A DNA stretch of 48,905 nt from Stramenopiles sp. TOSAG23-2 (lineage: Eukaryota): the NCBI GenBank assembly GCA_900128395.1, contig LT649274.1:1-48905 (forward strand), given 5' to 3'. Positions 1 through 18,343 of this stretch are shown here, in pieces. Below the pieces are notes generated by a model, which was not told the DNA's origin, did not search any database, and saw nothing but the letters and a program-made list of their open reading frames with translations. Both the position numbers and the translations under genes were made by a program. The stretch's first letter is position 1. Every line of letters starts with the position of its first letter.

Positions 1-103
1 ACCACGCAAGAAATAGTTTTACACAAAAACATAATTCTATATTGAATCTTACTGGAAACAATTATCTTCATCAATAGTTTTAATTTCATTCACGTTTTTA
101 AAT

Positions 104-2923
104 ATGACTTCTCTTGCTACCGATAATAAAGCCAAAACTCCATCCAAAGATACTCCTCATGCACGGCCAGTATGGGAGCCTGCTCCTTATCCTTCATGGG
201 GGAAACCAGACAGGAAGGGCGACAGCGGTAGCTTTACCTATGCGAAAGATAAAGAACTTGTTGAACACTGTGCGGAGTATAAACGATTACCTACTAAAAA
301 AAAAGGAATAGCTGTTGAAGGTGAAACAAAGTATTATACTCGGTGGAATCGTGCGCAAAATGGATATTATGAAGCATACCAAGAAACGGGAGACGAAGAA
401 TATATTATTGCATTCAAGAGGCTTGAGAGGTGGATAGCTGGCGCATGCGGCAAAGAAAATATCAGCGAGCTATTTACTGACGTAAGAACAATGAATAAAC
501 GTGATAAAATGGTAAAGTTTGTTGCCCAAGAACCTACTGAAGAAATGGCGAATATGTCGCTTGATACGAAACCACCTGCCGTGGAAGACAAAGCTCTTCA
601 GAAATATTACACGAGGACAGCGAGGATAGCGAAATGCATTGCGACGATACGTGAGAAGCTCAATATTAACAAAGATGATGTTATTATTGAACCAAGTGCG
701 GGGGACGGGCGATGGATTCCGTATTTGAAAACATTGTGTAAAAACGTTGAAGCTTACGATATTAAACCCGACGTTCCTGAAGTGAAAAAGATGGATTTTT
801 TGGAGTATGTGCCTCCTACGGACAAGAAAATTCACGTGATTGGAAATCCTCCTTATAAAAAGATTGAAGAGAAGTTCATTAGGAAATGCGTTCGGTTTGC
901 TGATTCTATTTCATTTATACTGCCCGCAAAGTATATGAAGCGTGATAATTTGGAACTATATTACAACGCGGATGGAACTGAGCACAAAACCATCTATCAT
1001 TTGCCGTTGGAATTCCACCCAGTTTATACAGAATATTTGGAAAAGGAGAAGTTTGGCGGAACTTACAATAAGCAATCTGTTGCCTTTATCATATGGGAAA
1101 GACGAAGCGACCCCCGTCTAACTATTTCAATGCCTACCGAATGCGAATTTTATGAATATGTTGAACACCGCAACCGCGAATCGGCAAATGCGAAAATTGT
1201 GATGAGCAAAGGAGTTGCGTATTGTTACGAAAAGAGGCGCGAAAGAGCATATATGCGCAATACAGACCGCCATTTTTATTTGAAAATAAATACATCTTTG
1301 ATATCTGCGAAAGCATTCGTGGAAGAATATAATAAGTGCGAACCAAAAAAGAGATATCCTGAGCTTTCCTATTGTCGCCGAATGGATAGGATATCCAAGT
1401 TTGATTTATTCACCGCATTGAACGAGTTTTGGGACCAGCAAGCTCCAATAGACTGGGCGGTTGTTGAAAAAGTTTTAGGTATCGTAAAAGAGGAAGCAGA
1501 TAAGAATAAAGAATTTGGACGGATGATAATTACAAATGAAGAAGAGTGCCGATTGTTAAAGAAATTAGATGACTACAGTTTAGTTTTTGATGACGGGTGC
1601 CCGTATTCTCAACTTGAGTTCAAAGGACTCAGTGATAAATGTTATAAAATGTTGTGCCCCATATTTCGTGACTTGTCTATTAGAGCGGAATTTATTATTG
1701 AGGGTATTACAGATAAAGGTATGAAACACTTAGTAGAAACGTTACAAGTTACTGCCGATATTTTACATATTAGCAGCGAAGAATTGAGTGATAACGGGTG
1801 GCGTGAATTTATAGACACGCTTAGATGCCGAGATTACTGTCTGAGAGGATTGTGTTTAATGGGTAGTGGTGTTACAGATAATATTTGTTCCTGCTTGGCG
1901 GACGTTTATAAAGTGAATAAGTTTGACCTCGGGGATTTTGAAGAATTATCTATTACTTCAAAAAACGTAGGCGCTCAAGGAAAGAAAATCTTAGAAGACC
2001 TACAGTGTGCTTGGGGAGGAACGGTGAATTTGAATACTGAAGCTGCTGAACCAAAGAAGGCGCCCGCCGAACCAGCGAAAGTTGCCGAGGATAGCAGCAG
2101 CAGCAGTGAGGACGATGATGACGATTATGATTGGAGTAAGATAACATACCATTGGGTTTGTCCTAAATGTGAAAGTCGCGTAAGTGAATGTGATACCCAC
2201 TGTAAGTGTGGTTATATGTGGAGACCTCCTCACGAAGAAGTAGAAGAAGAATATGAAGATACTGGTGTTGTTTATTGGTGGTGCCCAAGATGCGATTATA
2301 ACAATGACGATAATTTTTGTGAAGGTGGGTGTGAATATGACCACGAAGACGCATTTTTAAAAATCCATAGAAAGATGGAAGCAAGGTATTTCAGTAAAAA
2401 TAATATTATTGATACTGCTTGGTGGCGCAACAATTATCGTCCTGGAGCAGAAAAAGTATTATTTGATGGTAGAAGATATACTCCCTGGAATCACCGAGAT
2501 ATAAAAGATATGCTTAGACTTTTCAAAGACGGGAGGGTATATGGTCTCCACGATGTTAAATTTTATGGAATATACTGTCCTGAAACTGATACAATCGTAA
2601 AAGATGGAAAAGTTGTAAAAGATGTTGAAGATGAAAAAATGCCTGCTGTTGAAAAAAAAGAAAGCGATAAAGAAGAGGATACACAACAAGATATATACGA
2701 AAGTATGCTGAGAGAGATTAATGAACATAAATATGATGAAGATGGTTTTAGACCATTTACGCATTGGAGTGAAACTCTCCCATTGAAAATCCGTCGTAGT
2801 GATAATGCTGTCTATTATGTAGATATACCTGAAACAGCAGGGTTTTTGGGATATTACAATAGCGATACCGATAAGATAGAAAGCGATAGTGAAAGCGATA
2901 GTGGAAGTGATGATGATGTTTAA
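104..2923 (+). CDS. Viral-type N6-adenine DNA methyltransferase fusion protein (MTase + LRR-like region + two Cys4 zinc ribbons + acidic C-terminal repeats), 939 aa
   Basis: YYT, motif I IIEPSAGDG, AYDIKP, MDFL and catalytic VIGNPPY occur in gamma-class order. They are followed by LRR-like segments (GLSDKCYKML, GITDKGMKHL, ELSDNGWREF, GVTDNICSCL), WVCPKC..HCKCG and WWCPRC..FCEGGC. Intronless. Confidence 0.85.
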   Translation: MTSLATDNKAKTPSKDTPHARPVWEPAPYPSWGKPDRKGDSGSFTYAKDKELVEHCAEYKRLPTKKKGIAVEGETKYYTRWNRAQNGYYEAYQETGDEEYIIAFKRLERWIAGACGKENISELFTDVRTMNKRDKMVKFVAQEPTEEMANMSLDTKPPAVEDKALQKYYTRTARIAKCIATIREKLNINKDDVIIEPSAGDGRWIPYLKTLCKNVEAYDIKPDVPEVKKMDFLEYVPPTDKKIHVIGNPPYKKIEEKFIRKCVRFADSISFILPAKYMKRDNLELYYNADGTEHKTIYHLPLEFHPVYTEYLEKEKFGGTYNKQSVAFIIWERRSDPRLTISMPTECEFYEYVEHRNRESANAKIVMSKGVAYCYEKRRERAYMRNTDRHFYLKINTSLISAKAFVEEYNKCEPKKRYPELSYCRRMDRISKFDLFTALNEFWDQQAPIDWAVVEKVLGIVKEEADKNKEFGRMIITNEEECRLLKKLDDYSLVFDDGCPYSQLEFKGLSDKCYKMLCPIFRDLSIRAEFIIEGITDKGMKHLVETLQVTADILHISSEELSDNGWREFIDTLRCRDYCLRGLCLMGSGVTDNICSCLADVYKVNKFDLGDFEELSITSKNVGAQGKKILEDLQCAWGGTVNLNTEAAEPKKAPAEPAKVAEDSSSSSEDDDDDYDWSKITYHWVCPKCESRVSECDTHCKCGYMWRPPHEEVEEEYEDTGVVYWWCPRCDYNNDDNFCEGGCEYDHEDAFLKIHRKMEARYFSKNNIIDTAWWRNNYRPGAEKVLFDGRRYTPWNHRDIKDMLRLFKDGRVYGLHDVKFYGIYCPETDTIVKDGKVVKDVEDEKMPAVEKKESDKEEDTQQDIYESMLREINEHKYDEDGFRPFTHWSETLPLKIRRSDNAVYYVDIPETAGFLGYYNSDTDKIESDSESDSGSDDDV

Positions 2924-3672
2924 AAAAATAAACTATCCCAGTTCATATTATTGTTGTTTCTATTACCGTATATGCTTGGTGCGGACGGTTTCGGTGTAGG
3001 CTTTGGTCTTGCTGCCGCTTCGGCTTCTTTCCGCTTTTTCTTCCTTGCTTGCCTGCGATTATCCCACTGGTCCATCAGCCCAAAGAACGCTTCAGCTGCT
3101 TCTGCTTTACTCGGTCTATGCTGTGGCTTAGCTTGAGGTATGGGTATCGGTTGCGATGCTTGTCTTTGCTGAACTGGAGGTTTAGGAGCGGGTGGTGCTG
3201 GATGATTGTATCGCTCATTCTGGTCTCGCTTCTTTTCTGCCTTTCGCTTCATCGCTCGCTCCTTACGCACTCGCAAAGCTTTCTCCCTTGCCTTCGCCAA
3301 TTGAGCCTTCCGAGCTTCAGGCATACCATTTGGATAACGCTTCTTCCTTACTTTTTTGTCTCGCCCTCTATCTCCTAATCTTCGCTTTGGGGATGTAGGC
3401 TCTGGCTTAGGCTCTTTCGGTACCTCTGCTGGTTTAGATTCAGCTTCCTGTTTCGCTTCCTTCTCAATCGTTTCGGCACTTACAATTTTTACGTTGTCTG
3501 TTGAATTAGATTCCATTTTATTATTACTATAGAGAAAAATGTCTTTGGTTTTTTTTGCTGGTTTCTTCTTTTCTTTTATGTGGAGAGAGGGGCGTGACGG
3601 TGGTGATGCTGGTGGTGTTGGTGGCGAATCCATCTTTACATCGGGTAAAAAATCTTTCAAATTATTAAACAT
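2920..3672 (-). CDS. Lys/Arg/Pro-rich helical protein of probable PLV/virophage origin, 250 aa
   Basis: Long ORF with RKKR..ARKAQLAKAREKALRVRKERA, a motif reminiscent of small dsDNA virus proteins. Its stop overlaps the MTase stop (shared TTAA 2920-2923). Confidence 0.65.
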   Translation of the reverse strand: MFNNLKDFLPDVKMDSPPTPPASPPSRPSLHIKEKKKPAKKTKDIFLYSNNKMESNSTDNVKIVSAETIEKEAKQEAESKPAEVPKEPKPEPTSPKRRLGDRGRDKKVRKKRYPNGMPEARKAQLAKAREKALRVRKERAMKRKAEKKRDQNERYNHPAPPAPKPPVQQRQASQPIPIPQAKPQHRPSKAEAAEAFFGLMDQWDNRRQARKKKRKEAEAAARPKPTPKPSAPSIYGNRNNNNMNWDSLFF

Positions 3673-4385
3673 ATTATATTAATAGTGACTATTAAAATAA
3701 TATAATCGCCTCTTTTTTCCTCACTGTCTCCGCTCTCTTGATTAGAATTATTTTTTCTGGCTGGTGACTCGGGGCGTTTCTCTTCGGTATCTTCTTGTTC
3801 TGCTCTTTGCGGTTCTTCCTCCTCTTCTCTCCGCTCACCTCGCACTCCTCTCACTGAATTTACTAATTTATTGATTAGTTTCTCTTGCTTATTTACTATT
3901 TTTACCAACTGTTCTGTAGGGTCTATGGTTTTTGGTTTTTCAATACCCAATGGTATCTGAGTGTTTCTCTCTATACGGAACGTAACACACGAATTAGGAC
4001 TTAACCGACATAATTTATTATTATCAGGATTATAAATATCAATCTTGATGGTAGATAACGAACGCTTCTCAGTCACAGGAATACCAGTGGAACCTGACCC
4101 ATAGATAAAATTACCACTGGAGTATGATTTTTGTATGTTGAAGATACAGTTGCTCTGGACTCCATTCCCATTATAATAGTTGCTTGGGACTAAATCAGTA
4201 ACCAGGTTGTAGTGGCCTTCACTACTTAATCTCGGCATCTTGTCTGCTGTCCATAGAGAAGTGTTGGTGCTTACAAATGTAGATAAGTTATTAAGACTTC
4301 CAAGGTTGAACAAAGTTGTACCTGTACCTGGGTCGCCTGTCGTATGCTGATATAGCACATTCAGCGATGGATTTGTAGCACTGTA
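3657..4385 (-). CDS. C-terminal part of a probable minor capsid (penton, single jelly-roll) protein of a Polinton-like virus; 5' truncated
   Basis: YNLVTDLVPSNYY..CIFNIQKSYSSGNFIY..VTEKRSLSTIKIDIYNPDNNKLCRLSPNSCVTFRIE resembles the PLV/Polinton penton C-terminal pattern. Sequence character changes near 4385, so the ORF-track start at 4460 is doubtful. Confidence 0.65.
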   Translation of the reverse strand, partial: YSATNPSLNVLYQHTTGDPGTGTTLFNLGSLNNLSTFVSTNTSLWTADKMPRLSSEGHYNLVTDLVPSNYYNGNGVQSNCIFNIQKSYSSGNFIYGSGSTGIPVTEKRSLSTIKIDIYNPDNNKLCRLSPNSCVTFRIERNTQIPLGIEKPKTIDPTEQLVKIVNKQEKLINKLVNSVRGVRGERREEEEEPQRAEQEDTEEKRPESPARKNNSNQESGDSEEKRGDYIILIVTINIICLII

Positions 4386-4883
4386 CAAAGAAAAAAGGAT
4401 GAAACTAAGTATTAACAGGGGATTACCACCTACCATAGGGATACTATAGGGACTGAACATTCAAAAAATCATTGGAATTAGGTGAAGATTCACTACCTCT
4501 TTATAACGTTTTTATAAGCTAATTTTTGGTGAGCCGACTACTTATCCAAAAACAATAACAATCCCGTTTGAATTAGATTTTTATCTTTTGATTTGAATGA
4601 GACGATTTTCACCATCCGCAACGGTTTTTATGAATTCTCACGCGGGTGGGGAATCGGAGTTTGAAAATAATTCTCCGCGGGTGGTGCCGCGAACGGAGTA
4701 GCAGGAACACAGCATTATTAATAATCAAGTATAGAAATAGTATTTTAAGATATTTATAGTTCCTATCAAAGAGCCGCGCCAAATAGCAGCGACTTAGTAG
4801 CGGGTTCCACTCAAGTATAAACACGCGTAGATTCGCGGTTGGTGTTGCTATCAAAAAAAGACCGTTGTAGTGCTGTGACGCTT

Positions 4884-5087
4884 ATATAATGTTAAAACTT
4901 TCCCAACTAATCCGCAGTCCTTAACCAACCTGAAATTGTTAGACGATAATAGCATTAGTAACCGAGATTTGAATAAATTAACAGGGAATTATGCTTTGAT
5001 TAACGGTGAATCGTTGCCTTAATTATTTCTATATTGGGAAGGTTGGTTAAGGACTGCGGATTAGTTGGGAAAGTTTTAACATTATAT
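4884..5087. repeat. Perfect 48-bp inverted repeat with a 108-bp spacer
   Basis: ATATAATGTTAAAACTTTCCCAACTAATCCGCAGTCCTTAACCAACCT at 4884-4931 and its reverse complement at 5040-5087. Confidence 0.95.
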
Positions 5088-5733
5088 GGGTGAAAAAGGT
5101 AGTGTGTGAAAGATTCGCTCCCCTCACAACGCTCTTTCGTGTGGCAGTAGTGTGGCAGTGCTATCTGGCTATACTGTATACCCTCTAAAACATGCTTAAC
5201 AAATAACACTATTCACTATGGGAAATATGTATTTATCGTTTTTTAAAATGCCAATTTTATTTTTCATATAATATTGGAAAAAATAGCAAATATCCGAAAA
5301 TATAGAAACAATGATGAATATTTTCCCCATAGTGAATTTTGTTAAGTGTACATTTTTTGCACGAAGAAGTGTACATTTTTTACCGGTTCCCGAGGGTAGC
5401 ACTGCAGTGGGCAAAAACAACAGAAAAAACATATAACGTAAATGAATTATAAACATATATATCCACACTGATGTGGGACCAAAAAGTATGTGTGTGATCA
5501 TATATATATATCATCGTGAAAACAGAAGGACGATTAAAGGTAGATATATATATATTTAATATTATATATTGAAATATTGAGAAGAAGTAATAAATAAATG
5601 AAAAAAAAAATTTTATTTTTTTTTTCATCTACTAATTTATTATAAAAATATTATTGAACATTTTAACATTTAACAATAGGTTCGCCAAGGGCTAACAACA
5701 GGTAGTCTTAATAAACAGTGGTAATCATAACGC

Positions 5734-8700
5734 ATGAATATTCAAGAGTTAAAGCTAAATGGTACGCCATTGGTATGTGCATGTGAACAAGGGCATTTGG
5801 AGGATGTAAAATTATGCATTACAGGTCATGATGTAGAAGCTACTGGTATGACAGTAAAAGAAATGGTGAATCAAGTCGGTCGAAATCCTAAGGAATGTAC
5901 ACCTTTAATGGCAGCTGCACAGAAAGAACATTTCCACGTAGTTCAATATTTGATTGAACAATGCGAAGCTGATCCAAATATTGCAAATTATAGTGGTTGG
6001 AATGATTCAGTAGGTGGAGCAATTGGGGGGTGGAATGCATTACATGTAGCAGCAGAGAGTAACAGAACGAATACTGATGTGATTCAATTGTTACTAACTC
6101 ATATGTCTATTAATTGTATTAATAAGAGATCCGGGACGGGATCCACTCCCTTGGACAGGGCATATGAATATAATAAAAGTCCAAATAAACAAGAGATCAT
6201 TGATCTTATACGTAAGCATGGTGGGAAACGTGAAAAAGAGATTGATGAGATGGTAATTCCATTTATTAATGCATGTAGAATAGGACTTTTGAAGGTGAAA
6301 GAGTTTCTTACAAGCCACGATGTGAATGGTAGTAATGGTAATAATATGACATTGAAAGAAATGGTCAATCTAGAAGGTGCATTTGATACTTGGAGATCTA
6401 CACCTTTAGAGGCAGCTGCACAGTGCGAACATTTCGACCTAGTTCAATATCTAATTAAAGAAGGTGGAGCTGATCCAAACATTGCACATTGTCATGGAGA
6501 GAATGCATTACATGCAGCAGCATGGCATAACAAAAAAAATACTGATTTGATTAAATTTTTATTAAAGCATATGTCCCTTGATAGTATTAATCAGAAGGAC
6601 TCGTCCAGGTGGATAGAGACTCCTGTGGACAGGGCATATCGTAATACTAGTTCAATTAAACAAGAAATCATTGATCTTATACGTTTAAAAGGTGGAAAAA
6701 GTGCAAAAGAAGCAAATGGTAGAAATGTGGGAATGGGTAAAGGTGATTTAAATGCAAAATCAAACTCGCAACTTCAAAAAATTTCATCGGTTTCTGGATC
6801 AATGTCAAATACTTTAGAAGGAAATTGGTACACTATTGATACTCGTACTGGACAGCCAACTGGAGACAAATATGAATTTCGAAAGATAGAGGAAAATTAT
6901 TATGGAATGTATCACAACGGTAAGAATGGGGATAGGGTACTCTGGACACCAGAGATTTTCCTTGCCAGTACCCTGACAAGGAAAAGGGATAGGGATTGTT
7001 TTCGAATAAATGGCAATGCACTCAATCATGAATATGGTCATACTGCTGAAATTCAAGCAAATGGAGATATTCGATGGATATCAGTTGAAAATGGTAGGTA
7101 TATATCACGTCGAGAAGGCGGTTATGTACACACCAAAAAAAAATCATCAAAAAAAAAACTACCAGGACATCCATCAACAAATATTCAAGAATTAAGTCAC
7201 CATAAAGATTTTGCATTTGTGTTATGCCATGTTGCAGATAAAAATTCTTTTCTTGCATATGATAGAAAACATGTTATTGAAGATAAATGGAATTTATATG
7301 GTGCTTCAATGAAGCCTTCTACTTTAAAAAATGCAGCAATATTTACGTTCCATGAACATGGACACAGTAAAAATGGTGGACGGGGACTATCATATTCCAG
7401 TGATCCATATATGGGTTTGGAGGTCAATTGTAGGCAATTTGTAGAAGGTGGGTCGTGTCAATTGCTTCGTTCCCGTGGTGTAGATCGTGGGTGTAGCGGA
7501 GTGAAATGGGTTATTAATGGTGATGGTACACTTACACCTGATGATGGACCGAGAGATTTAGTATTAGGTTTTGGGGATATTACGTATAATAATTGGAATA
7601 AAAAACCTGAAAAAAGAAGTTACAAAGCTATTGGTTTGGTAAAGAAAACATCAGTAAATCGTGTTATTGCTGTAATTGCTCAGGTAAATGACAATTCAAC
7701 AAAGAGTCTATTGAAAAATGTAGAAATGAACCAGCAGACTGCAAGTGAATTTAACAAACAAAAATCAACCTTGCAAGCAACCAAAGACCTAAAACTACCA
7801 GGGCATCCAACAGTTGTGTTAAAAACTGACAGTAACAACAATAATAACAATGAAGATCCATTTTCAGTTTTAGGTCCAGGTTGCTATCGAATCTTGACAA
7901 CAGAACATGCTGATGGAAAACAACGAAGGGGGTGGGGGCTTTCAGTAAGCCGTACTGAAACGGATTGTTGTCGGAATAACAAATCCACATGGGTATGTGT
8001 CCAAGAAGCTAAATGGTTGCATATGGTATGGAACGTTGTAAAAGGCAAAAAACAGAATACGTGGCGTATTTTAACGACTGGATATGAAGATGGTGAGCAA
8101 CCAGCAAATTGGGGGCTCAGTGCATGGAATACACACGGTGCAATACGAAACAAAGTATCCAGCTGGACAGCTGTTCATTCAGGAGATCATTGGCCAATGG
8201 ACTGGAAAATTATAAAAGGAAAAAAACCTAATACGTGGCGCTTGTTAACAACGAAACATGATGCTGGGAAACAACCTGAAAATTGGGGACTAAGTGCATG
8301 GAATGCCCATGGAGCTAAAAGAAATGCTCATTCATCTCGAGTTGCAGTGCATGAAGGAGATCACTGGCCAATGGATTGGGTCTTTCAAAAAGTTGAGACA
8401 TTGTTTGATGTAAAACCAAAAGTTAAAATATTACCAATGAAAAAGTCCGCAGCAACATCGTTGATACCGCCAGTAAATGTAAAAAACCGTAACAAATATT
8501 TTGAAAACCATAAAGTAAAGTTAAAAGGTTACGAAAACGAAATGAAAGAGATGATAAAATCAAATGAATATAATATTGATTTGTTGAACAGGTTTACACA
8601 ATATTTAAATTCATTTGAAGTAGATGCATATGATAAATGCCTCCCAGAATATGATTTTTATAAAGGTGGTGATACCGTAACTGTTAAATTTTTTTGTGAT

Positions 8701-11700
8701 GATTTCATTGATGAAGTCTATTACAACAATGTAAATATACGTGGTAAAGTTGAAGGAAATGTAAATGGTTGTTGTACCTGGAAAACATTAAAATTTGTTG
8801 GTCGCCCACGTGCAGTATTGGCAATAGCATGCAACGATAATCAACCTGGAACTTCTGCATCATTTGCCTTTATTGCGAAGAGTTCAGATCCAGATAGTCC
8901 ATGGAATTTTTCTTCCTTTCCAAATGATCAAAGTGGCCGTACGTACAAATTGAATTGCATTGCTATACATATATACATATATTAATACACATATATAAAA
9001 CCACAACTAATTAAAATAGTTGCTAACATAATCTCATATTTCTTCTTCATACATTCTATATAATAATATATCCAGGCATCCGAGTGTTCGGAATCCATGG
9101 TCCAGATCAACATCATGGCAGCATGCGAAGACCAAAAAACAAGGATCCTAAAGAGTCGAATTGGTTTTCAAGTAAATATAAAGGACATTCCAAATTGAAT
9201 ATACCAATGAATGCAACAAATGGTCATAAGAATGATGAACATGTATGGCATGGTCGTTGCAAATATAACTTTTATCGCATTTGTCCAGATCATAAATCAG
9301 TCAATTTGTCCAAGATTGAAAGAGGAAAACAAATGTTTGAAAAAAAATTTGGTAATGTTGAATATGAATATAAAGTAGATGAAAGGCAATTAAATTTTAA
9401 AGAGCATGAATCAAATGCGCTAGAATGGGGAGGGCATATTGTATCAATTACATCAAAGGCAGAGCAAGCATTTGTTTATAATCTAATTAAAAATTCGGTT
9501 CGTCAACATATTTGGATTGGCGGTATGCGACGTGGTAAAAGTAATGGTAAAGGTTCCAAGTATTGGAAATGGAGTGCGGAAGCAAACAAAGCGAAAGGAA
9601 GAACGTGGTGGTCTATGTTTGGCAGAAAAGAAAACTCTGATACTGTATATCCATGGAAATATGAAAATTGGGCCCGTGGGGAGCCGAATAATTGGGGAGG
9701 TGGTGAAGATCGGGTTCAAATGTGGCATCATAATGGCCAATGGAATGATTGCAATCAACATGCAAGAATGGCTGCTGTTTGGAAACGGGTCAAACCAACA
9801 AGAAAAGATTTAAGACGACAAGATGCACAAATAGAAACAGCGGCAATGGAAAAAGAACGTATGGAAAAAGAACGAATGGAAAAAGAACGAATGGAAAAAG
9901 AACGAATGGAAAAAGAACGGGAACTTGTAATGCAGGAAATTGAGCAAGGTATTCAGGTAGGTGAGGAGTTATGTGCCTCTTTTTTCAATGATATGGCAAA
10001 GCTTTTTGAGAGGTTACATGTACAGAAAACTTTAGCTGAAATTGAAGAGAAAAAAGGCTTGTTAAAAAGATCAAATAAGCTAAAAGAACCTGTTGTTCTT
10101 GATATAATCCAGATGATAAAAAAACAACAAGACATTCGAAGTTTGGGTAAAACTGTTTCTAATAAAAATGATAACGTTGGAAGCAATGAGAACAGAAAAA
10201 ATACAACGTCGGATTCTGAAATAGTCTATTCTATAGCTAAAAAGGTAGATGATACAATAGCAGAAATAAAAAAGCTTCAAACATTTTCATCGGTTTCTGG
10301 ATCAATGTCAAATACTTTAGAAGGGAATTGGTACACTATTGATACTCATACTGGACAGCCAAATAAAGACAAATATGAATTTCGAAAGATAGAGGAAAAT
10401 TATTATGGAATCTATCGCAACGGTAAGAATGGGGATAGGGATCGTTTTCGAATAAATGGCAATGCACTCAATCATGAATATGGTCATACTGCTGAAATTC
10501 AAGCAGATGGAGATATTCGATGGATATCAAAAGGCAATGGTAGGTATATATCACGTCGAGAAGGCGGTTATGTACACACCAAAAAAAAATCATCCACGGA
10601 GGATATTGCAAATGAAGAAAGTTACAAAATGTTACAAAATTATTGCAACACATTGCTGAAAATAAAACAAGATGTAACAACATCAATTGCTTCTGAATAT
10701 GCATATTTACCAAATATTCGTTCGATATCAGATGAAAAGGTTCAAGTACATTGGACAAAAGATTGGGCTGTTTTGCCTGAATATCGAAAGGCAAAAGCAA
10801 TGTTTTGTCTTGAAAGTGAATGGTTATCGGATACAATGTTATTGCGTCAGATACGGGATGCAAATGCGCGTTTTGGGGAAGAATTGAAAAATATGAACTC
10901 CAACAAGGCTTTTGAAACAGCATGTTTGGAAGCAATATGCAAAGGATATAAATTAAAAAGCAAAAACAAGGCAAAGAAACAAAAAGATTTATTAAGCCAA
11001 CGTGTAATTTTAAATGAAGTTAGAAAATGCTATAATAATTTGGAAGCATGGAAAAAACCGTACTTTAATCATGCGTTACATATTTTAAGTAAATATGAAT
11101 CCGATAATGGGGCAATAACGACGAAATTAGCAGAAGTATGCGATAGAGCATTGCATTGTAGGCAAGTTCAAGTGAAGTCCTTTAATTTACTAATGTCCCA
11201 TTCATATCGATTAATACTATCTTTAAGAAGTCAAGTTGGTTTAGAGGAACAAGTTGGAAAAGTTATGGAAGAAAAAAATGGAGAAGAGGAAGAAAATCAT
11301 AATGTTGTGCCAGATCTTCCTGCTACGTACGAAGATTTAAAAGTTGGGGCGCATGTAATTTGTTCTTGGGACAATGCTATGGATAAATGGGAACATTCTC
11401 CAGATGGAAAAATGGTAGATCTTAGTGCTGTGAGGAAAGGGAAGCTATACTCAGCACAGGTAAAGGGGAAAACGAACAATAATAAGGCCAGTCGGCCAAT
11501 ACAAATTTCATTTCAGGATGGAAATACAAAGTGGGTTCCAGCTGATTTGCTAGTTATAATTCAAAATTTTTCCAATTCATCACAACAAAACGTAATTGCT
11601 GTTAAATGTACAGAAAAATGGTCATATAAAAGTGGACCTACAATTGAATGTACAGTTTGGGAGCGTACTAATCGTACAAAAGTGGAAATAGAAGCTATCA

Positions 11701-13988
11701 TGGATGTGCAAAAAAAGAAACGGGCTCATCACAAGGATATTGATAAATTGACTTTGCACATCGATGATGGTGCATCTGTGGTAAAACGTTTACCAAGCAT
11801 AAAACGTAGTTACAGTAGTGGTGAAGATTTGGAATCATATACCAATGCCTTGCAAAGATTTTATGAAATCATGGAGGATTATATTGATGATCACAAGGAA
11901 AATGCATTTCAATCATCGTTCGTTGAGCCAAGTGAGTTTTATTTTCACTTTAAAAATCGCAGGGAGGGTTGGAACGAAGACAATGTGGTTACACATAGTA
12001 TTAACTATTATTTAACCCTTTTAAACTCCACAGTTGGTGTCCATTTACCAATGCTACCTGCATATTGGGAAAATTGGCCGGAAACAGTTTGTGATTTTTG
12101 GGCAGGGCTTTCAGATGAAGCATGGGAACAATTTTCAGCTATAAATCATTTTGGCATAAGTTATGAAGGAATTTCTGAATTGAAAAACCATGCAAAAAAA
12201 TATATAAAAAATGGCAATATCCCACGAGCTCAATTTCCAAAGGGTTCAAGACCACCTCCAGCAAAAGAATTTGCAAATAATAATGTAAATCCAAACGGAA
12301 ATGCAAATCATCGTAAAGCATTAGCTCTATATATTGAACGATTTGCATCATTTTTCAAATTAGATTTTTTCGTATATAAAGCATTTAATAAATTGTATAG
12401 CGAAGAAAAACCGGAACATGCCGGTTTTCGCAGAGCATGTGCCACGTTATACAATGTGTATAGAAATGAGCAAAGTCCTGATTATGAAGAAGAATTTATT
12501 GAATATTGTTTCAAAGATGAAATGTTTATGGAATTAGATATTGAGCGTGTAGCAAGATTTTTTGTATGGCTTGGTGTTGTGAAACCAACTGAAAAAATAT
12601 TTGTTACAAAACGTGATGTAAATCGAAAAAGCAAAAAAAACAGTGATAACAAAAGTAATAATAACCATACAAACATATCCAAGAATAATCGTAAAGAAAA
12701 GAAAGGTTTAGAAGAAGTTGAAAAAGTTTTACTTGATATTGAAAAACAATTACAAAAAGCTATGAAAGACAGAGATACCAATTCCATTCGAGCTTTAATG
12801 GCAAAACGAAACGAAGTACAAACAATGCGTTCAGCACGGTTAAAAAAAAATAGTGAAATATCAAGAGCAGATAATAATAATAATGATGATGATGCAAAGG
12901 CTTTGGGTGATAATAACAAAGTATTTGAGAAGAAATTATTAGATATTAATAAAAAAATGCAGAAAGCTATGGCAGATCGTGATACAAATAAAATAAGATC
13001 ATTAATGGCTGAACGAAGCAAAATGCTACTTGAACAAGATGCAAGTAAAGTTCCACCAAAGCAAGTTGTTGTGTATAATAAGATTGTCAAAACTGCAAAA
13101 GAGAGTCTTGATGGAAAAGAAAATTTAGGTTTTTCTTCAAGTTTAAGATATGAATTTGGCGACGTTGAATTGGAATTAGAACACCGTTGTGTGTATATAG
13201 ATGGTTCACAAGGTGCAATTGAAGTTACTACAAATAGTACTGATAAGGCAACTGTAACTTGTAAGTTGAATATTGATACATTCATTCAAGTCATCATGGG
13301 AGAATTAAAACTAGAACAAGCGCTTGGATCTGGAAAAATGAAAATGGAAGGCAATACAAGTGTTTTAGGAGCTGCAGCAAATTTATTAGAATTGTTGGAT
13401 AGTGGGATGAAAAAATTATTCTTAGAAATGAATAATAATGATAGTAATAGTGATAATAGTAATTACAAATCCATAAAAGGAGGGATAAACACAGGGAAAA
13501 ATGTTATAATTAAATTTGGACTTATAAATGAAACTTTTGATTTAGAAGTAAAATTATATGATGATATCACACCGTTAACTTGTAAAAATTTTAGAACAAT
13601 TGCTTCTAAAGGTATTAATGGTAAAACATACAATGGATGTATAATACATAGGATTATTAAAAGATTTATGTTACACGGTGGAGATATAGTAAATGGAAAT
13701 GGAACTGGTAGTATATCTATATATGGTAATCAATTTAAAGATGAAAATTTTATTAAAAAACATGATAAAGCGGGATTATTATCAATGGCAAATAGTGGAC
13801 CAAATACTAATGGATCACAATTTTTTATTACAACTGTTCCTACTCCACATTTAGATGGAAAACATGTTGTATTTGGAGAAGTAGTAAAAGGTATAGAATA
13901 TATTAGTAAATTTGAAAATTTATCAACTGATACTTCTGATAAACCATATCAAAATTTAGTGATTATATCTATTAAAGAAAAAAATTAA
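5734..13988 (+). CDS. Giant multidomain protein (~2705 aa; exons 5734-8938 and 9076-13988): ankyrin modules, beta-trefoil-like repeats, jelly-roll-like domain, C-type lectin, MEKER repeats, SCP2, C-terminal cyclophilin
   Basis: Intron 8939-9075 (GTACGT..TGCTAAC..CCAG) joins the 1083-aa and 1634-aa ORFs in frame (C|GC = Arg). Domain motifs: TPLxxAA/NALH ankyrins; WIGG..NWARGEPNN..GQWND lectin; GELKLEQALGSGKMKMEGN SCP2; HRII..GGD..GTG..SMANSGPNTNGSQFFIT..LDGKHVVFG cyclophilin. Confidence 0.85.
8939..9075 (+). other. Spliceosomal intron (137 nt)
   Basis: GTACGT donor, TGCTAAC branch site near 9021, CAG acceptor; splicing restores the reading frame. Confidence 0.9.
9846..9920 (+). repeat. Coding 15-bp minisatellite x5 (MEKER)
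   Basis: ATGGAAAAAGAACG(T/A/G) repeated five times. Confidence 0.95.
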
Positions 13989-14488: not shown

Positions 14489-16523
14489 CACTATGGATGA
14501 AATACGCCTCTTATTTTAGCTAAAATCGGTCATGTTTTTTTGAGCTGTCCCATGGCTGCCGGCTGATTTTTTGAAAGGCCCGCTCGGCCTCTAACAATCA
14601 CCCACTATGGATGAAATACGCCTCTTATTTTAGCTAAAATCGGTCATGTTTTTTTGAGCTGTCCCATGGCTGCCGGCTGATTTTTTGAAAGGCCCGCTCG
14701 GCCTCTAACAATCACCACATCAAAAATCATGTTTTTTTGTACTAAAACAATACAATTATATTCCTATATAGCACGCAATTGTCGTCCTATGCTAATTTTT
14801 GTATATGGGAATAGCATTAGCGTCTATAATTAAAAATCAATCCATCAAATTTCTTATTATTAATTTATTATAATTGTTGAAATTACACTATTGCAATGTG
14901 CTATTATACCATCTTACACTATATATATAGACTTATAGACTTTTTACCCATTATAGATATAGACATATGCTATACTTTCATAGTACTTCAGTGAACAAGA
15001 AGGATTTCAATCGAGAACTATCAATTAATAACTAGAACAAGAATAACAAGAACAATGTCAAGAATAGTTCAAGCAGAGACAAGGGAATACAATCTTCAGC
15101 AAACGAATAATCCTGCCCCAAGTAGTACATCTGGTTGGTCGAAACTAGATGGTGGCGATTTTGACGATGCATTAGTACTAAAGATGTATTTCTGTTACAA
15201 ATATTATCACAATGGGATTTTATACCGATGTCGTACAGAGATTGGCAAAGAAAAATTTAGTGATATCTTTTTTTTTGCAGATAATTCTACAACACATTTG
15301 CAGATCTGGTTAGCTGATAAATGTAAAGCACAGGCATTAACATCCGCTACTTCTGGTGGAAATATAAAGATCCCTCAGTTCTTTTGCAGATAATTCTACA
15401 ACACATTTGCAGATCTGGTTAGCTGATAAATGTAAAATCAAATCAAATAAAAGATATGAATGAAACAAGCTTCTTGATGTTTTTAAAATCAAATGAAGAT
15501 GTTTCCACACAGAAGCTCATATCGTGATTGTTAAATGGCGATTTGACATATCTATACGATAAATATGGGGTATCATTCGGATAACTTGTGTGCATTGCCT
15601 GAATCACGGTGAACCCTTTTTCTTCAAGTAATGCATGTGCAGCAGCGTGGTACTTCTGTCTCAATGCTTTGGCTTCGTCACGTGATCCACGTTTACTTCT
15701 GGTGGAAATATAAAGATCCCTCAGTTCATGACAGGTCGAACTCATCAGGAAATAGTTATATTCAAGAAACTAGACGTACCTAAGTATATTTATATTATAC
15801 AATATACTTCTGGTGGAAATATAAAGATCCCTCAGTTCATGACAGGTCGAACTCATCAGGAAATAGTTATATTCAAGAAACTAGACGTACCTAAGTATAT
15901 TTATATTATACAATAGTATTATTATTATTAGAATGTGGTCTCTCTGGTATATTGTGTTAAGTCTGGGAGTTCTTGTTAATTACAGTACCTGTATATATTC
16001 TTTTGGTTTTGTTATGTGTGTGTGTAAAGCAGTTGTTGAGTTTTTGTAGTCGCTTCATATGCGTCAATCATAAAATTGTGCATGCTATTTGCCTGTTATC
16101 GGATTGGGCTAGTAATATTTCCTTTGGTTTTTTTTTCTTCGTATGTGCAAGTGCATGTGCGTATTTCGTATTTCTTATACGTCCTTCGGCAGGCTAAATA
16201 TATATAGGGTATATAAAAATATAACAGTACAATTAATATATACTTAATCGTAAAATATACACCGTTCAAAAAAAGTTTGTATATTTTTCATTTAGCATAG
16301 GACGACAATAGATAGAGTTAGAGAAATGAGGGTTATAACACGTAAAAAATCAGCGGCTGCTCAAAAAAACATGACCGATTTTAGCTAAAATAAGAGGCGT
16401 ATTTCATCCATAGTGAAGAGAAAAAAGCGGAAAAGAAAGTTCTTTTTTCTTTTTTTCGGAAAAAGCTGTCAAAAAAACATGACCGATTTTAGCTAAAATA
16501 AGAGGCGTATTTCATCCATAGTG
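14489..16523. mobile_element. Non-autonomous CACTA/CMC-like DNA transposon with 57-bp TIRs (both ends doubled)
   Basis: CACTATGGATGAAATACGCCTC...TTTGAGC starts at 14489 and 14603; reverse complements end at 16415 and 16523. Internal 18-bp inverted repeat at 14778-14795/16292-16309. No transposase recognised. Confidence 0.8.
15443..15745 (-). CDS. Possible small ORF or gene fragment inside the CACTA-like element
   Basis: 100-aa ORF with protein-like composition; no recognised motif; the region is scrambled by duplications. Confidence 0.25.
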   Translation of the reverse strand: MSSTCHELRDLYISTRSKRGSRDEAKALRQKYHAAAHALLEEKGFTVIQAMHTSYPNDTPYLSYRYVKSPFNNHDMSFCVETSSFDFKNIKKLVSFISFI

Positions 16524-16699
16524 TGTCCAAAAAATAGAATATAAAAAAATTCTAAAGTGATTCGTACTTACATTTATATATTAGTATTGTAAAACACTAT
16601 AAATTTTTCTATCAAATACGCCACCCCCGAAAAGCGTTATTTTTCATTCACGCTTCTTTCATATTTATCAATGTACACATCCATTTAAACAAAAACAAT

Positions 16700-16987
16700 T
16701 TGATGTTTTGGGAAATATCACAATTAAAAGAAGAAGTTAGAGATTTAAAAACATTGGTAAAATCATTAATTTCTAAATTGAAAGATAATAATAAAAATAT
16801 TGTTGGTGATATTAGCAATGACGTGACATTAGATAGTTACCTTCATGAGGTAAATGTGGAACAAGCAAATAAGGCGATTGATAATCCAGAGGAATTGAAT
16901 GATGTTGGGGAAAAGGAGGAAGAGGAGGAGGAGGAAGAAGAAGAAGAAACCGATGATACACTTAATGAACAAGAAGCAAAAAAGTGA
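16700..16987 (+). CDS. Small coiled-coil/acidic hypothetical protein
   Basis: ORF with ATG at 16703, a heptad-like N-terminus and a poly-Glu tail, in otherwise very AT-rich flanks. Confidence 0.45.
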   Translation: MMFWEISQLKEEVRDLKTLVKSLISKLKDNNKNIVGDISNDVTLDSYLHEVNVEQANKAIDNPEELNDVGEKEEEEEEEEEEETDDTLNEQEAKK

Positions 16988-17368
16988 TGGTACGATATAA
17001 TAATTTGTACATCCCACATCGATCGTGATATATAATTTTAAATACACGAATATCTTATATCTTTAATACTTAATTGCAATAACTTATTTTTTAATTTACT
17101 CATGATAATTCCTACTATCTCCCCATTTCAACAATTATTGCTAACAAAATAATATTTTCCCCATTGTCCTTAGTTTTAAAAATTGTGTTGTTTTTTTTTC
17201 ATTCACAAGGATACAGATACAGTAGATAGATACAACAAAAGAAGAAATAGAAACAACAATCAATCATTCACACACCGTGTCATCTCACATTATATATATT
17301 TTCAAACAAAAGAATTCACATACACGTTATATATCCCCATTTCCCTCCTACGTCCTTCATCATTCACC

Positions 17369-18343
17369 ATGTCAGCAATAAAAATATTATCGCAACGAAA
17401 AGTTGCATCAGGAATATTAACAAGATTATCGTTCAAATCACAAGTATTAAATTCCACTACAACATTCACCATGTCAGCAATAAAAATATTATCGCAACGA
17501 AAAGTTGCATCAGGAATATTAACAAGATTATCGTTCAAATCACAAGTATTAAATTCCACTACAACAACATCAACGTTTATTCCAAAATCAGCACCTGGTT
17601 CTAGTGCAAAACCAGCTTTGTATTGGCTCTCTGGATTAACGTGTACTGATGAAAATTTTGTAGAAAAAGCAGGTGCATTTCATAGTGCATCAAAACATTC
17701 TTTAAGCTTAGTAATACCGGATACATCACCACGTGGCGATAGTGTTCCAAATGATGAAGCATATGATTTAGGTCAAGGTGCTGGTTTTTATTTAAATGCA
17801 ACTGAAGACCCGTGGAAAGAACATTACCAAATGTATGATTATATCACGAAAGAACTACCGGAGGTACTTGCAAATTCAGAATTTAATATATGCAAAAATT
17901 ATCGCTCCATCTCTGGTCATTCCATGGGTGGGCATGGTGCATTAACAATAGCAATGAAAGATGAAGGTAAATCATATGCAAGTGTGTCAGCATTTGCACC
18001 AATTGTAGCACCTGCACAAGTTGACTGGGGAAAAAAAGCATTTACAAATTATTTAGGTTCAGTGGAAAATGGTGCAAAAGAATACGATGCTACAAATTTA
18101 TTATTGGAGAATGGTCCATTTCCAGAATTAGGAACGATATTAATTGATCAAGGTACGGATGATGAATTTTTAGATAATCAATTAAAAACGGAATTGTTTG
18201 AAAATGCATGTAAGCAAGTTGGACAATCAAAACAAATTAATATGAGAGATGGATATGATCATTCTTATTTTTTCATCTTATCATTTATTGATGAACATAT
18301 TCAACATGCATCAAAAGCAATTAAAGCAAGGATGAACCAGTAA
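17369..18343 (+). CDS. ESD: S-formylglutathione hydrolase (esterase D); first 34 codons duplicated in frame
   Basis: LYWLSGLTCTDENF, PDTSPRG, GAGFYLNAT, GHSMGGHGAL nucleophile elbow, GYDHSYFF. Real start is likely ATG 17369 (or the duplicate copy at 17471). Confidence 0.95.
   Translation: MSAIKILSQRKVASGILTRLSFKSQVLNSTTTFTMSAIKILSQRKVASGILTRLSFKSQVLNSTTTTSTFIPKSAPGSSAKPALYWLSGLTCTDENFVEKAGAFHSASKHSLSLVIPDTSPRGDSVPNDEAYDLGQGAGFYLNATEDPWKEHYQMYDYITKELPEVLANSEFNICKNYRSISGHSMGGHGALTIAMKDEGKSYASVSAFAPIVAPAQVDWGKKAFTNYLGSVENGAKEYDATNLLLENGPFPELGTILIDQGTDDEFLDNQLKTELFENACKQVGQSKQINMRDGYDHSYFFILSFIDEHIQHASKAIKARMNQ

Follow-up and report, generated by a model that had tools for sequence, protein, structure and literature searches.

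A probable endogenous remnant of a Trimcap-type polinton-like virus, with the end of a very large penton gene, beside marine protist genes

Introduction

Polinton-like viruses (PLVs) of the Trimcap group, or group X, are defined by three MCP genes (bioRxiv 10.64898/2026.06.19.733378; PMC7805220). The text of these sources describes the group as the most abundant PLV type in marine surveys, with hosts that are inferred mainly by correlations and from a few endogenous copies; the viruses themselves are those of Bellas & Sommaruga 2021 and 2026, Piedade et al. 2024 and PLV-SP03 of Yutin et al. 2015, as cited there. Endogenous PLV and virophage elements of protists are the subject of Bellas et al. 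2023 (PMC10120064), the text of which reports Trimcap EVEs in unclassified stramenopiles.

In this study, we analyzed one stretch of DNA, 48,905 nucleotides in length (the window), at the start of which an earlier note, made from the letters alone, had placed a PLV or virophage fragment next to protist genes. Like the endogenous elements of protists described so far, the window contains a partly degraded viral block of its own composition that adjoins host genes; different from them, it shows one truncated end, without terminal repeats, target-site duplication or integrase. Hackl et al. reportedly described such endogenous elements in 2021 as well. The fragment probably is a Trimcap-type member and, endogenous PLVs in protists being already well documented, the insert itself is ordinary.

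Layout and composition of the fragment

The features of the fragment, including those defined by comparison with the metagenome contig L002 and with the penton-like protein P0029 that it encodes, are as follows:

104..2923, plus strand: ORF1, 939 residues, stop-free
2920..3672, minus strand: ORF2, 250 residues, stop-free
3657..4460, minus strand: ORF3, 267 residues, stop-free; 3′ end of a penton gene plus extensions
3657..3704, minus strand: read-through tail of ORF3, 15 codons into sequence upstream of ORF2
3698..3707, no strand: deletion junction, heptamer TAATATA; a 4.6-kb cassette is gone relative to L002
3705..4382, minus strand: penton remnant, 226 codons (ORF3 residues 27–252), matching P0029 residues 893–1115
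4383..4460, minus strand: outer break, 26 codons that match no penton and carry ORF3 up to its ATG at 4460

The earlier note had described three ORFs with overlapping ends, and the coordinates and both overlaps were recovered. The TTAA at 2920–2923 is common to the TAA of ORF1 (2921–2923) and the opposite-strand TAA of ORF2 (2920–2922); ORF2 and ORF3 overlap by 16 bp, between the stop of ORF3 at 3657 and the ATG of ORF2 at 3672. None of them is a chance frame, because all have homologues: 23 for ORF1 at E ≤ 1e-3 (best identity 76%), three metagenome copies for ORF2, and 84 for ORF3 at E ≤ 1e-3, searched among 1.84 billion representative proteins. The window sequence contains no N, and the contig is continuous.

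The composition is unlike that of the host genes, as had been claimed. GC content is 0.397 in 1–4382 versus 0.324 in 4383–48905, and GC3 is 0.335–0.375 in ORF1–ORF3 versus 0.166–0.280 in nine neighbouring eukaryotic ORFs; the GC3 of the three ORFs agrees with that of their viral relatives, unlike that of the host. Outside the fragment, the window is eukaryotic and belongs to an intron-bearing marine protist. It encodes RRP36, DBR1, a sedolisin, an S28 peptidase and a cyclophilin, and one host intron (GTACGT...CAG) lies at 8939–9075. With relatives of ORF1–ORF3 residing on PLV contigs, a PLV-type fragment thus adjoins protist genes in the contig. Two DNA runs from two samples under one organism label contain 85% and 63%, respectively, of the words sampled from window positions 1–9000, which are word shares and not read alignments; the top-scoring run may be the source of the window itself. 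The best-matching runs are very small data sets, of 17–21 million letters.

Relatives and the capsid module

The nearest relatives of all three genes are on the metagenome contigs L001–L003, which are 18–35 kb in size and carry three divergent capsid genes beside an A32-like ATPase. L002 holds an ORF1 homologue (40% identity over the methyltransferase core), an ORF2 homologue (∼80%) and P0029 on one contig; L001 holds homologues of ORF1 (52%) and ORF2 (77%), with order and strands as in the window. The Trimcap/group X arrangement, in which an A32-like ATPase precedes three MCP-like genes that diverge from one another, was seen in L001–L003 and in 25–26 of 26 IMG/VR contigs with a homologue of the giant penton. 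Among these 26, the ATPase was found in 23, MCP1 in 25, MCP2 in 25 and MCP3 in all; the gene order is mostly ATPase, MCP1, MCP2, MCP3, penton, the last being 1682–2476 residues in size. L001 and L002 have three MCP-like genes each, and the ATPase is a P-loop protein of 245–270 residues that precedes the MCPs (23/26 IMG/VR loci, L001 and L002).

For the relatives, the MCP and ATPase calls draw on published work, the order of the genes and weak family matches, not on folds. Among 21 MCP1 members, three have a Capsid_N match (best E 0.0035); Pox_A32 matches 1 of 19 ATPase members (1.3e-4), and MCP1 adjoins a Capsid_NCLDV cluster in the ESM Atlas (0.96). By hhalign, MCP1 and MCP2 are paralogues (96%, E 3.9e-9), whereas MCP1 and MCP3 are weakly related (33%).

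Different from these viruses, the window itself carries no MCP gene and no ATPase: tblastn with all ORFs of 31 loci found neither an MCP homologue nor an A32-like ATPase in the window, and no further PLV gene remnant in 4476–48905. The fragment is therefore assigned to the Trimcap type by linkage in its relatives only. Homologues of ORF1, ORF2 and a 607-residue gene occur in L001–L003 and in none of the 26 IMG/VR loci, so the window's element and L001–L003 form a sublineage with its own accessory genes. The 607–614-residue protein had no Pfam match at E ≤ 10, no PHROG match and no PDB match; its C-terminal pattern resembles R..HxxR..H..Y, which we take to be the tyrosine recombinase signature.

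ORF1 and ORF2

ORF1 has a conserved N-terminal part, an adenine-N6-methyltransferase-like core (∼residues 159–480), a weak leucine-rich repeat (LRR) region of ribonuclease-inhibitor type (∼500–640) and an acidic tail, with two zinc-ribbon-like CxxC...CxC motifs at residues 686 and 727. Within its family, EPSAGDG and NPPx (NPPY/W/F) are invariant in 7/7 and in 5/5 aligned sequences; in ORF1, NPPY follows EPSAGDG by ∼50 residues. We take EPSAGDG to be the AdoMet-binding motif I of a Rossmann-type fold, and NPPY presumably is catalytic motif IV, (D/N)PP(Y/F/W). ORF1 matches phrog_5172 (5.5e-17) and phrog_799, 'DNA methyltransferase' (2e-12), and its profile matches the rRNA adenine methyltransferases ErmAM (E 0.0018) and ErmC′ (0.017). 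By motifs I and IV, ORF1 is a putative N6-adenine methyltransferase, in keeping with the remark of the earlier note that PLVs often encode DNA methyltransferases.

In the order of its motifs and in its PHROG, ErmAM and ErmC′ matches, ORF1 resembles the gamma-type N6-adenine and Erm-type rRNA adenine methyltransferases. Different from them, its core is fused to the LRR-like and zinc-ribbon-like regions, and ORF1 stays under every Pfam gathering score (RrnaAD, 12.7 bits versus a cut-off of 24). For the LRR part, the family profile matches ribonuclease inhibitor at 3.9e-30, ORF1 by itself at E 0.77. The C-terminus of ORF1 is unlike that of all its relatives.

ORF2 has a pI of 10.4, with 24% Lys plus Arg and 13% Pro. 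It is 74–83% identical to its copies on L001, L002 and L003, with position and strand unchanged; it has no Pfam or PHROG match, and no homologue was found in IMG/VR. Judged from its sequence, ORF2 is a basic protein without family assignment, kept beside the methyltransferase gene in related viral contigs.

The penton remnant and the giant penton family

ORF3 residues 27–252 align with the C-terminal 223 residues of the 1115-residue P0029 at 83% identity (E 2.7e-118). By tblastn, P0029 residues 893–1115 map to 4382..3705 of the window, and nothing maps farther upstream in the gene; ∼890 N-terminal codons are thus absent and the C-terminal quarter is left, so the penton ORF is indeed cut close to the proposed position, 4385. 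Matches of 14 giant-penton ORFs from IMG/VR to the window are confined to 3855–4475.

The fold evidence comes from P0029 and not from ORF3, the single-sequence model of which is poor (pLDDT 46.6). The AlphaFold model of P0029, built with a 43-sequence alignment, has a pLDDT of 67.3 and a pTM of 0.70. When it was compared with 651 chains by VIA-align, the best 22 entries were all pentons, with Z of 8.4–12.7; the next were an iridovirus capsid chain (Z 6.4) and entries of at most 5.4. The best match is PBCV-1 6ncl_a6 (Z 12.7; 140 residues aligned, rmsd 3.5), and the others include 8h2i_bG (Z 10.7), Sputnik 3j26_N (Z 10.6), mavirus 6g41 (Z 10.4; 255/287 aligned), adenovirus penton bases (Z 8.6–10.0) and EhV-201 (Z 8.4). 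Foldseek alone gave penton matches only at E 0.013–0.05. P0029 shares 7–11% sequence identity with the structurally matched pentons, and the giant penton family has no sequence match in Pfam, PHROG or PDB.

In the P0029 model, the jelly roll appears to be made from both termini around an insertion of ∼800 residues, and the segment kept in the window corresponds to the C-terminal jelly-roll strands and the helix after them. The modelled fold therefore supports ORF3 as the C-terminal end of a gene for a penton, the minor capsid protein with a single jelly roll. The earlier proposal of a penton stands, because the full-length relative models as one, although this is not a small ordinary penton but a form of 1100–2500 residues. 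The model superposes on the mavirus, Sputnik, PBCV-1 and adenovirus pentons (6G41/6G42, 3J26 chain N, 6NCL/8H2I, 1X9P and others; Z 8.6–12.7), and the adenovirus penton base also has a large insertion within its jelly roll. However, the known pentons are ∼290–570 residues in size, whereas P0029 has 1115 and its IMG/VR relatives 1682–2476, with an insertion of ∼800 residues or larger and a long low-complexity C-terminal tail.

The cut gene thus led to a very large penton family (1100–2500 residues) common to a PLV group, with a fold recognisable only by model, and this giant penton is a more interesting by-product than the insert. Tentatively, and with more doubt than confidence, we propose that the Trimcap/group X vertex protein might be one polypeptide of 1100–2500 residues that takes up about a quarter of the genome, its jelly roll split by an insertion of ∼800 residues or more, with a long disordered tail, so that base and spike or fibre would be fused. 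If so, the window copy would link the virus lineage to an actual protist genome and offer a handle on its host. No description of a giant penton was found in the literature searched, figures and supplements lying outside that search; if indeed undescribed, giant pentons bear on the vertex construction of three-MCP capsids and on cell attachment.

The deletion junction and the outer break

Two homology blocks link the window to L002: 2920–3704 corresponds to 12104–12869, and 3698–4373 to 17478–18144. The cassette between ORF2 and the penton gene that is missing relative to L002 holds genes for proteins of 607, 106 and 706 residues. L002 has the heptamer TAATATA upstream of its ORF2 homologue and a near-copy, TAATCTA, across its penton stop, and this stop codon is missing in the window, as seen in a three-way DNA alignment. 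The 4.6-kb deletion between the near-identical heptamers removed the penton stop codon too, the ancestral gene order being inferred from L002 at only ∼75% DNA identity. With the stop lost, ORF3 runs on, and its 16-bp overlap with ORF2 arises.

At the outer break, a pyrimidine tract plus CAG on the minus strand ends at 4381, where the penton homology begins. No TIR, TSD or integrase was found within the window, and its sole visible boundary is the truncated one.

Origin of the fragment

Positions 104–4382 are likely the truncated end of an endogenous Trimcap/group X PLV in the nuclear DNA of a marine protist with introns. A PLV of the L001–L003 lineage would have entered the host chromosome, relatives carrying the 607-residue protein with a C-terminal pattern like that of tyrosine recombinases; later decay would have comprised one terminal truncation and, by microhomology, one internal deletion. 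With half of the jelly roll gone, the remnant could not make a capsid vertex, and so the fragment would not be a functioning virus end. ORF1 and ORF2 keep open frames that could be expressed. The GC3 is still viral and no stop occurs in 226 codons, so the insertion event is probably recent. The insert is a candidate for a physical tie of a Trimcap-type PLV to the genome of one particular marine protist.

A giant virus (Nucleocytoviricota) as the source, instead of a PLV, is very improbable. In the ESM Atlas, P0029 has as neighbours unnamed clusters of 1011–1064 residues labelled Nucleocytoviricota (0.90–0.91), and the best BFVD rows include proteins of 800–1040 residues from Bodo saltans virus, Tupanvirus, Klosneuvirus and Yasminevirus; these leads are weak, with a recognition of 1488, below the 2300 mark, and E of 3e-4 or worse. 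Every contig with homologues and context is 10.6–35 kb in size and has ATPase, three MCPs and penton together in a compact module; the contig parts examined showed no core genes of giant viruses. A more serious alternative, although still an unlikely one, is that virus and host sequence do not adjoin in nature, and that an assembly or amplification chimera at ∼4383 joined a PLV from the same sample, free or episomal, to a host contig. The abrupt break at 4382/4383, the undecayed remnant ORF with GC3 equal to that of viral relatives, and the small size of the best-matching runs would all suit such a join. Neither a stop nor a frameshift interrupts the remnant, and its composition shows no drift towards that of the host; this speaks against the endogenous reading, as a recent artefactual join would look alike. 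However, a functioning free virus would require the whole penton, and the second rearrangement, with its 4.6-kb deletion and lost penton stop, suits a decaying insert better. No repeat by which an assembler might be misled is common to the junction and the remaining window, and by arithmetic the word shares of the 9-kb stretch imply that each sample has some of both halves.

Even if the truncated PLV end is a real insert, the host could have retained ORF1, ORF2 or both and express them, for example as a domesticated gene for DNA modification or virus sensing, with the penton tail perhaps spliced to a host exon; we consider this improbable. Both ORFs are fully open, but a recent insertion would leave the frames open anyway, and their GC3 is still viral. 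The penton homology begins exactly at the pyrimidine tract plus CAG, and host introns are of the GT...CAG type; the frame would be held by one ATG exon upstream that has a GTGAGA donor, yet a single frame-keeping candidate in 1.3 kb is within chance. The divergent C-terminus of ORF1 gives no sign of conservation within hosts, and six RNA runs contain only 7–14% of the sampled words.

The viral fragment and the neighbouring eukaryotic genes

The first 4.4 kb of the window contain three viral ORFs:

ORF1, 104..2923, forward strand: putative methyltransferase, 939 aa
ORF2, 2920..3672, reverse strand: basic protein, 250 aa
ORF3, 3657..4460, reverse strand: cut penton gene, 267 aa

The stop codons of the convergent ORF1 and ORF2 share the letters TTAA at 2920–2923, and the start of ORF2 overlaps the stop of ORF3 by 16 bp; both had been read in the same way in the earlier note. 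The GC content is 0.397 in 1–4382 and 0.324 in the remainder of the window, which contains no N. GC3 is 0.335–0.375 in the three viral ORFs versus 0.166–0.280 in nine neighbouring ORFs, confirming that the composition of the fragment is unlike that of the host genes.

The other large ORFs of the window include ordinary eukaryotic genes, coding for RRP36, the lariat debranching enzyme DBR1, a sedolisin and an S28 carboxypeptidase; further eukaryotic ORFs encode an esterase, a cytochrome-b5-reductase-like protein, a cyclophilin fusion and an ephrin-receptor-like/TRP protein. On the forward strand, ORFs 5734–8985 and 9084–13988 are two exons of one gene, joined in frame by removal of a 137-nt intron (8939–9075); its donor at 8939 reads GTACGT, and it ends at 9075 with CAG after a pyrimidine tract. 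Taken together, the genes and the intron indicated that the neighbouring DNA is nuclear DNA of an intron-bearing eukaryote, in line with the protist host genes of the earlier note. The product of the two-exon gene (5734–13988) is ∼2700 aa in size and has an unusual domain mix: ankyrin repeats and three copies of an unnamed ∼60-residue repeat in the first exon, and C-type lectin, SCP2 and cyclophilin domains in the second.

ORF3 is the C-terminal remnant of a giant penton gene

HMMER, run exhaustively on 1.84 billion representatives, identified 84 relatives of ORF3 at E ≤ 1e-3, 21 of them at E ≤ 1e-10. In almost all of these, residues ∼25–185 of ORF3 match near the C-terminus of proteins of 1100–2470 aa. 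The top match is P0029, a 1115-aa protein encoded on metagenome locus L002; ORF3 27–252 and P0029 893–1115 are 83% identical. When P0029 was aligned to the window by tblastn, 4382..3705 was the only aligned part, so ∼890 codons are missing from the ORF3 gene. The first 26 codons of ORF3 (4460–4383) are unrelated sequence, and neither the rest of the penton gene nor other genes of the related viruses were found elsewhere in the 48.9-kb window. The proposal that the penton ORF is cut near 4385 was thus correct, homology to P0029 stopping at 4382. ORF3 belongs to no family in Pfam or PHROGs, and single-protein pattern scans of IMG/VR with ORF3 or P0029 found no relative. A word-index protein search in the 146–468 aa range also found none, the relatives lying well above this length range.

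Folded as a single sequence, ORF3 gave a poor model (pLDDT 46.6). P0029 was modelled by AlphaFold2 with a 43-sequence alignment (pLDDT 67.3, pTM 0.70); the model contains two blocks of β-strands (residues 3–111 and 927–1036) and one helix (1047–1070). Foldseek search of the PDB gave weak but coherent matches (E 0.013–0.6) to PBCV-1 capsid chains, the mavirus penton, Sputnik and the adenovirus penton base. In a second comparison by VIA-align, covering 651 of the Foldseek chains, 22 penton entries rank first; below them are an iridovirus capsid chain (Z 6.4) and unrelated folds (Z ≤ 5.4).

Table. VIA-align comparison of the P0029 model with penton structures
PBCV-1 6ncl_a6: Z 12.7 (140 residues, rmsd 3.5)
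8h2i_bG: Z 10.7
Sputnik 3j26_N: Z 10.6
Mavirus 6g41/6g42: Z 10.4 and 10.2 (∼255 of ∼290 residues)
Adenovirus penton bases: Z 8.6–10.0
EhV-201: Z 8.4

The penton identity suggested in the earlier note is therefore upheld through the P0029 model, which aligns best with pentons, whereas ORF3 itself folded poorly. Every penton alignment spans model residues ∼5 to ∼1035, from which we infer a jelly roll built from both termini around an ∼800-residue insertion. Like P0029, the adenovirus penton base has an insertion in its jelly roll; that of P0029 is far larger. Judged by the model of this 83% identical relative, ORF3 encodes the predicted C-terminal strands and trailing helix of the penton; owing to the absence of the N-terminal strands, it cannot form the jelly-roll fold.

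In the penton family, the N-terminus and the C-terminal domain are conserved. Pfam gave no match in any of the five giant pentons scanned, and the family profile gave nothing significant against PDB sequences. BFVD rows for P0029 include the PLV Tetraselmis viridis virus S1, the mavirus 'minor capsid protein' and giant-virus proteins of 800–1040 aa. Complete giant-penton ORFs on IMG/VR contigs are 1682–2476 aa in length (for example, L017 9992–17080, L019 8116–15501 and L020 7318–14745), and the gene occupies ∼23–24% of the 28.8–29.6-kb contigs behind L018 and L017. In the IMG/VR loci (L006–L031), the jelly-roll strands are followed by a long low-complexity tail. A giant penton with a predicted split jelly roll, common to this abundant PLV group, is a by-product of the analysis; no published description was found in the text passages searched, and authors may have annotated it in figures or supplements.

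Two probable rearrangements of the fragment

L002, which is ∼75% identical to the window in DNA, served as the reference for the deletion. Window 2920–3704 aligns to L002 12104–12869, and window 3698–4373 aligns to L002 17478–18144; the switch between the blocks falls in the window heptamer TAATATA. L002 has TAATATA on the upstream side of its ORF2 homologue and a near-copy, TAATCTA, spanning the penton stop codon. Deletion between these near-repeat heptamers, either in the virus or after insertion, would remove the genes of the 607-, 106- and 706-aa proteins and replace the penton stop codon; the replacement would result in the 15-codon read-through of ORF3 and the 16-bp overlap with ORF2. 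We rejected the overlap as a native trait of a compact genome, as it would be produced when the deletion removed the stop codon of the penton gene. The 607-aa protein has no match in Pfam, PHROGs or PDB; its C-terminal pattern may be tyrosine-recombinase-like.

The outer break, at 4382/4383, is the other rearrangement. On the reverse strand, a pyrimidine tract plus CAG at 4381–4400 immediately precedes the start of the penton homology and resembles a splice acceptor; upstream, there is one candidate ATG exon (4642–4715, reverse strand) that, spliced from its GTGAGA donor, would leave ORF3 in frame. The two features may reflect chance or exonisation of the remnant.

ORF1 and ORF2

The core of ORF1 (residues ∼159–480) matches phrog_5172 (5.5e-17) and phrog_799, 'DNA methyltransferase' (2e-12), although Pfam thresholds were not reached. 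Every aligned relative has the motifs EPSAGDG and NPP(Y/W/F), and a five-sequence core profile reaches the adenine methyltransferases ErmAM (E 0.0018) and ErmC' (E 0.017). Based on these matches, ORF1 is a putative adenine-N6-methyltransferase-like enzyme, and the methyltransferase gene implied in the earlier note is supported by the phrog_799 match and the invariant motifs. According to part of one preprint (bioRxiv 10.64898/2026.06.19.733378), most PLV genomes carry methyltransferase genes. Bacterial or phage origin of the fragment was rejected, PHROG matches being confined to the methyltransferase core.

The ORF1-family profile matches ribonuclease-inhibitor-type LRRs at 3.9e-30, owing to relatives with clear LRRs; the E-value for ORF1 alone is 0.77. 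Two CxxC...CxC motifs are located downstream of the LRR-like region. Among the relatives, the core is joined to varying C-terminal modules: P0004 and P0006 have clear RNase-inhibitor-type LRRs, P0007 has three tandem cores, and P0001, P0002, P0003 and P0005 share one conserved C-terminal motif of ∼60 residues; the C-terminus of ORF1 is different again. Cluster look-up of the relatives returned no names, and a single-protein pattern scan of IMG/VR with ORF1 found no relative.

ORF2 is basic (pI 10.4) and proline-rich, and its homologue always adjoins the methyltransferase gene in the related metagenome loci L001–L003. It has no Pfam match or known family, and an alignment pattern scan of IMG/VR found no relative; our guess is a DNA-binding or core protein.

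Gene context in related viral loci

The metagenome scan with the ORF1 family gave five loci. L002 is part of a 27.9-kb contig.

Table. Gene order of L002
1. 263-aa P-loop protein, then Gly-rich 257-aa protein
2. Proteins of 498, 444 and 496 aa
3. RING-finger protein, 6303–7061, reverse strand
4. 444-aa protein, after the RING-finger gene
5. ORF1 homologue, forward strand
6. ORF2 homologue, reverse strand, ∼80% identical to ORF2
7. 607-aa protein, then 106-aa protein, both reverse strand
8. 706-aa protein, 15331–17451, forward strand
9. P0029, reverse strand

L001 (34.7-kb contig) keeps this order as far as it reaches; its homologues are 52% (ORF1) and 77% (ORF2) identical. The IMG/VR scan, for which the query was a sub-alignment of more closely related penton-family members, gave 26 contigs of 6–30 kb. 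By BLASTP against all their ORFs, the P-loop protein is present in 23, the 498-aa protein (MCP1) in 25, the 444-aa protein (MCP2) in 25 and the 496-aa protein (MCP3) in all 26. In most cases, these genes immediately precede the giant penton gene; in four loci, the 496-aa gene is located downstream, on the other strand.

The MCP1 and MCP2 families are paralogous (hhalign 96%, E 3.9e-9), and MCP3 is weakly related to MCP1 (33%). Capsid_N weakly matches 3 of 21 MCP1 members (top E 0.0035), Pox_A32 weakly matches 1 of 19 members of the P-loop (ATPase) family (E 1.3e-4), and in the ESM Atlas MCP1 has a similarity of 0.96 to a Capsid_NCLDV cluster. Pfam gave nothing for the L002 structural genes, the MCP1 and ATPase profiles gave nothing significant against PDB sequences, and a single-protein pattern scan of IMG/VR with the L002 ATPase found no relative. 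This weak family evidence agrees with putative packaging and capsid roles.

In part of bioRxiv 10.64898/2026.06.19.733378, and likewise in parts of PMC7805220, 10.64898/2026.05.28.728513, PMC11502894 and 10.64898/2026.10.13.758929, the hallmark of the Trimcap/group X PLVs is described as a gene order in which three divergent MCP genes come after an ATPase. By linkage in its relatives, the fragment can be placed, provisionally, in this lineage; part of PMC10120064 reports endogenous Trimcap MCPs in unclassified stramenopiles. The earlier reading, a PLV fragment with a methyltransferase and a cut penton beside protist genes, stands.

The 706-aa protein, located between the 607-aa and penton genes (L002 15331–17451 and L003 10555–12672, both forward strand), has jelly-roll-like termini by eye and one weak relative in L022 (E 8e-7). 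It was considered as a second penton; hhalign against the penton profile found no relation, leaving the idea unsupported. The RING-finger protein (zf-RING_2, 2.3e-8) is encoded on the reverse strand of both L002 (6303–7061) and L001 (7019–7846), and ubiquitin-ligase-type host manipulation is a possible role.

Probable integration into host DNA

Integration of the fragment in host DNA is probable. The contig is continuous across the fragment and the host genes, the two rearrangements leave the piece non-viable as a virus, and the junction has no repeat able to mislead an assembler; all three argue against a chimeric join of a viral piece and host DNA, which we regard as unlikely. Sampled words of window 1–9000 were present at 85% and 63% in two DNA runs (one organism label, two samples). 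Each half of this interval makes up ∼50%, so neither share could be reached from one half alone; drawn from word shares, this speaks to the presence of both halves in each run, contiguity apart. However, the run with the top share may be the source of the window itself, and the remnant is undecayed and unchanged in composition, as it would also be after a recent chimeric join. Endogenous PLV remnants are already known, and the integrated copy favoured here is a further example.

The viral break is separated from the host gene by 1.35 kb of AT-rich DNA, which contains one perfect 48-nt inverted repeat (4884–4931/5040–5087) with a 108-nt spacer, within an imperfect palindrome of ∼204 nt. The repeat occurs as one copy in the window, matches nothing in the loci of the viral relatives, and could be a hairpin element, an MITE-like relic or a regulatory region.
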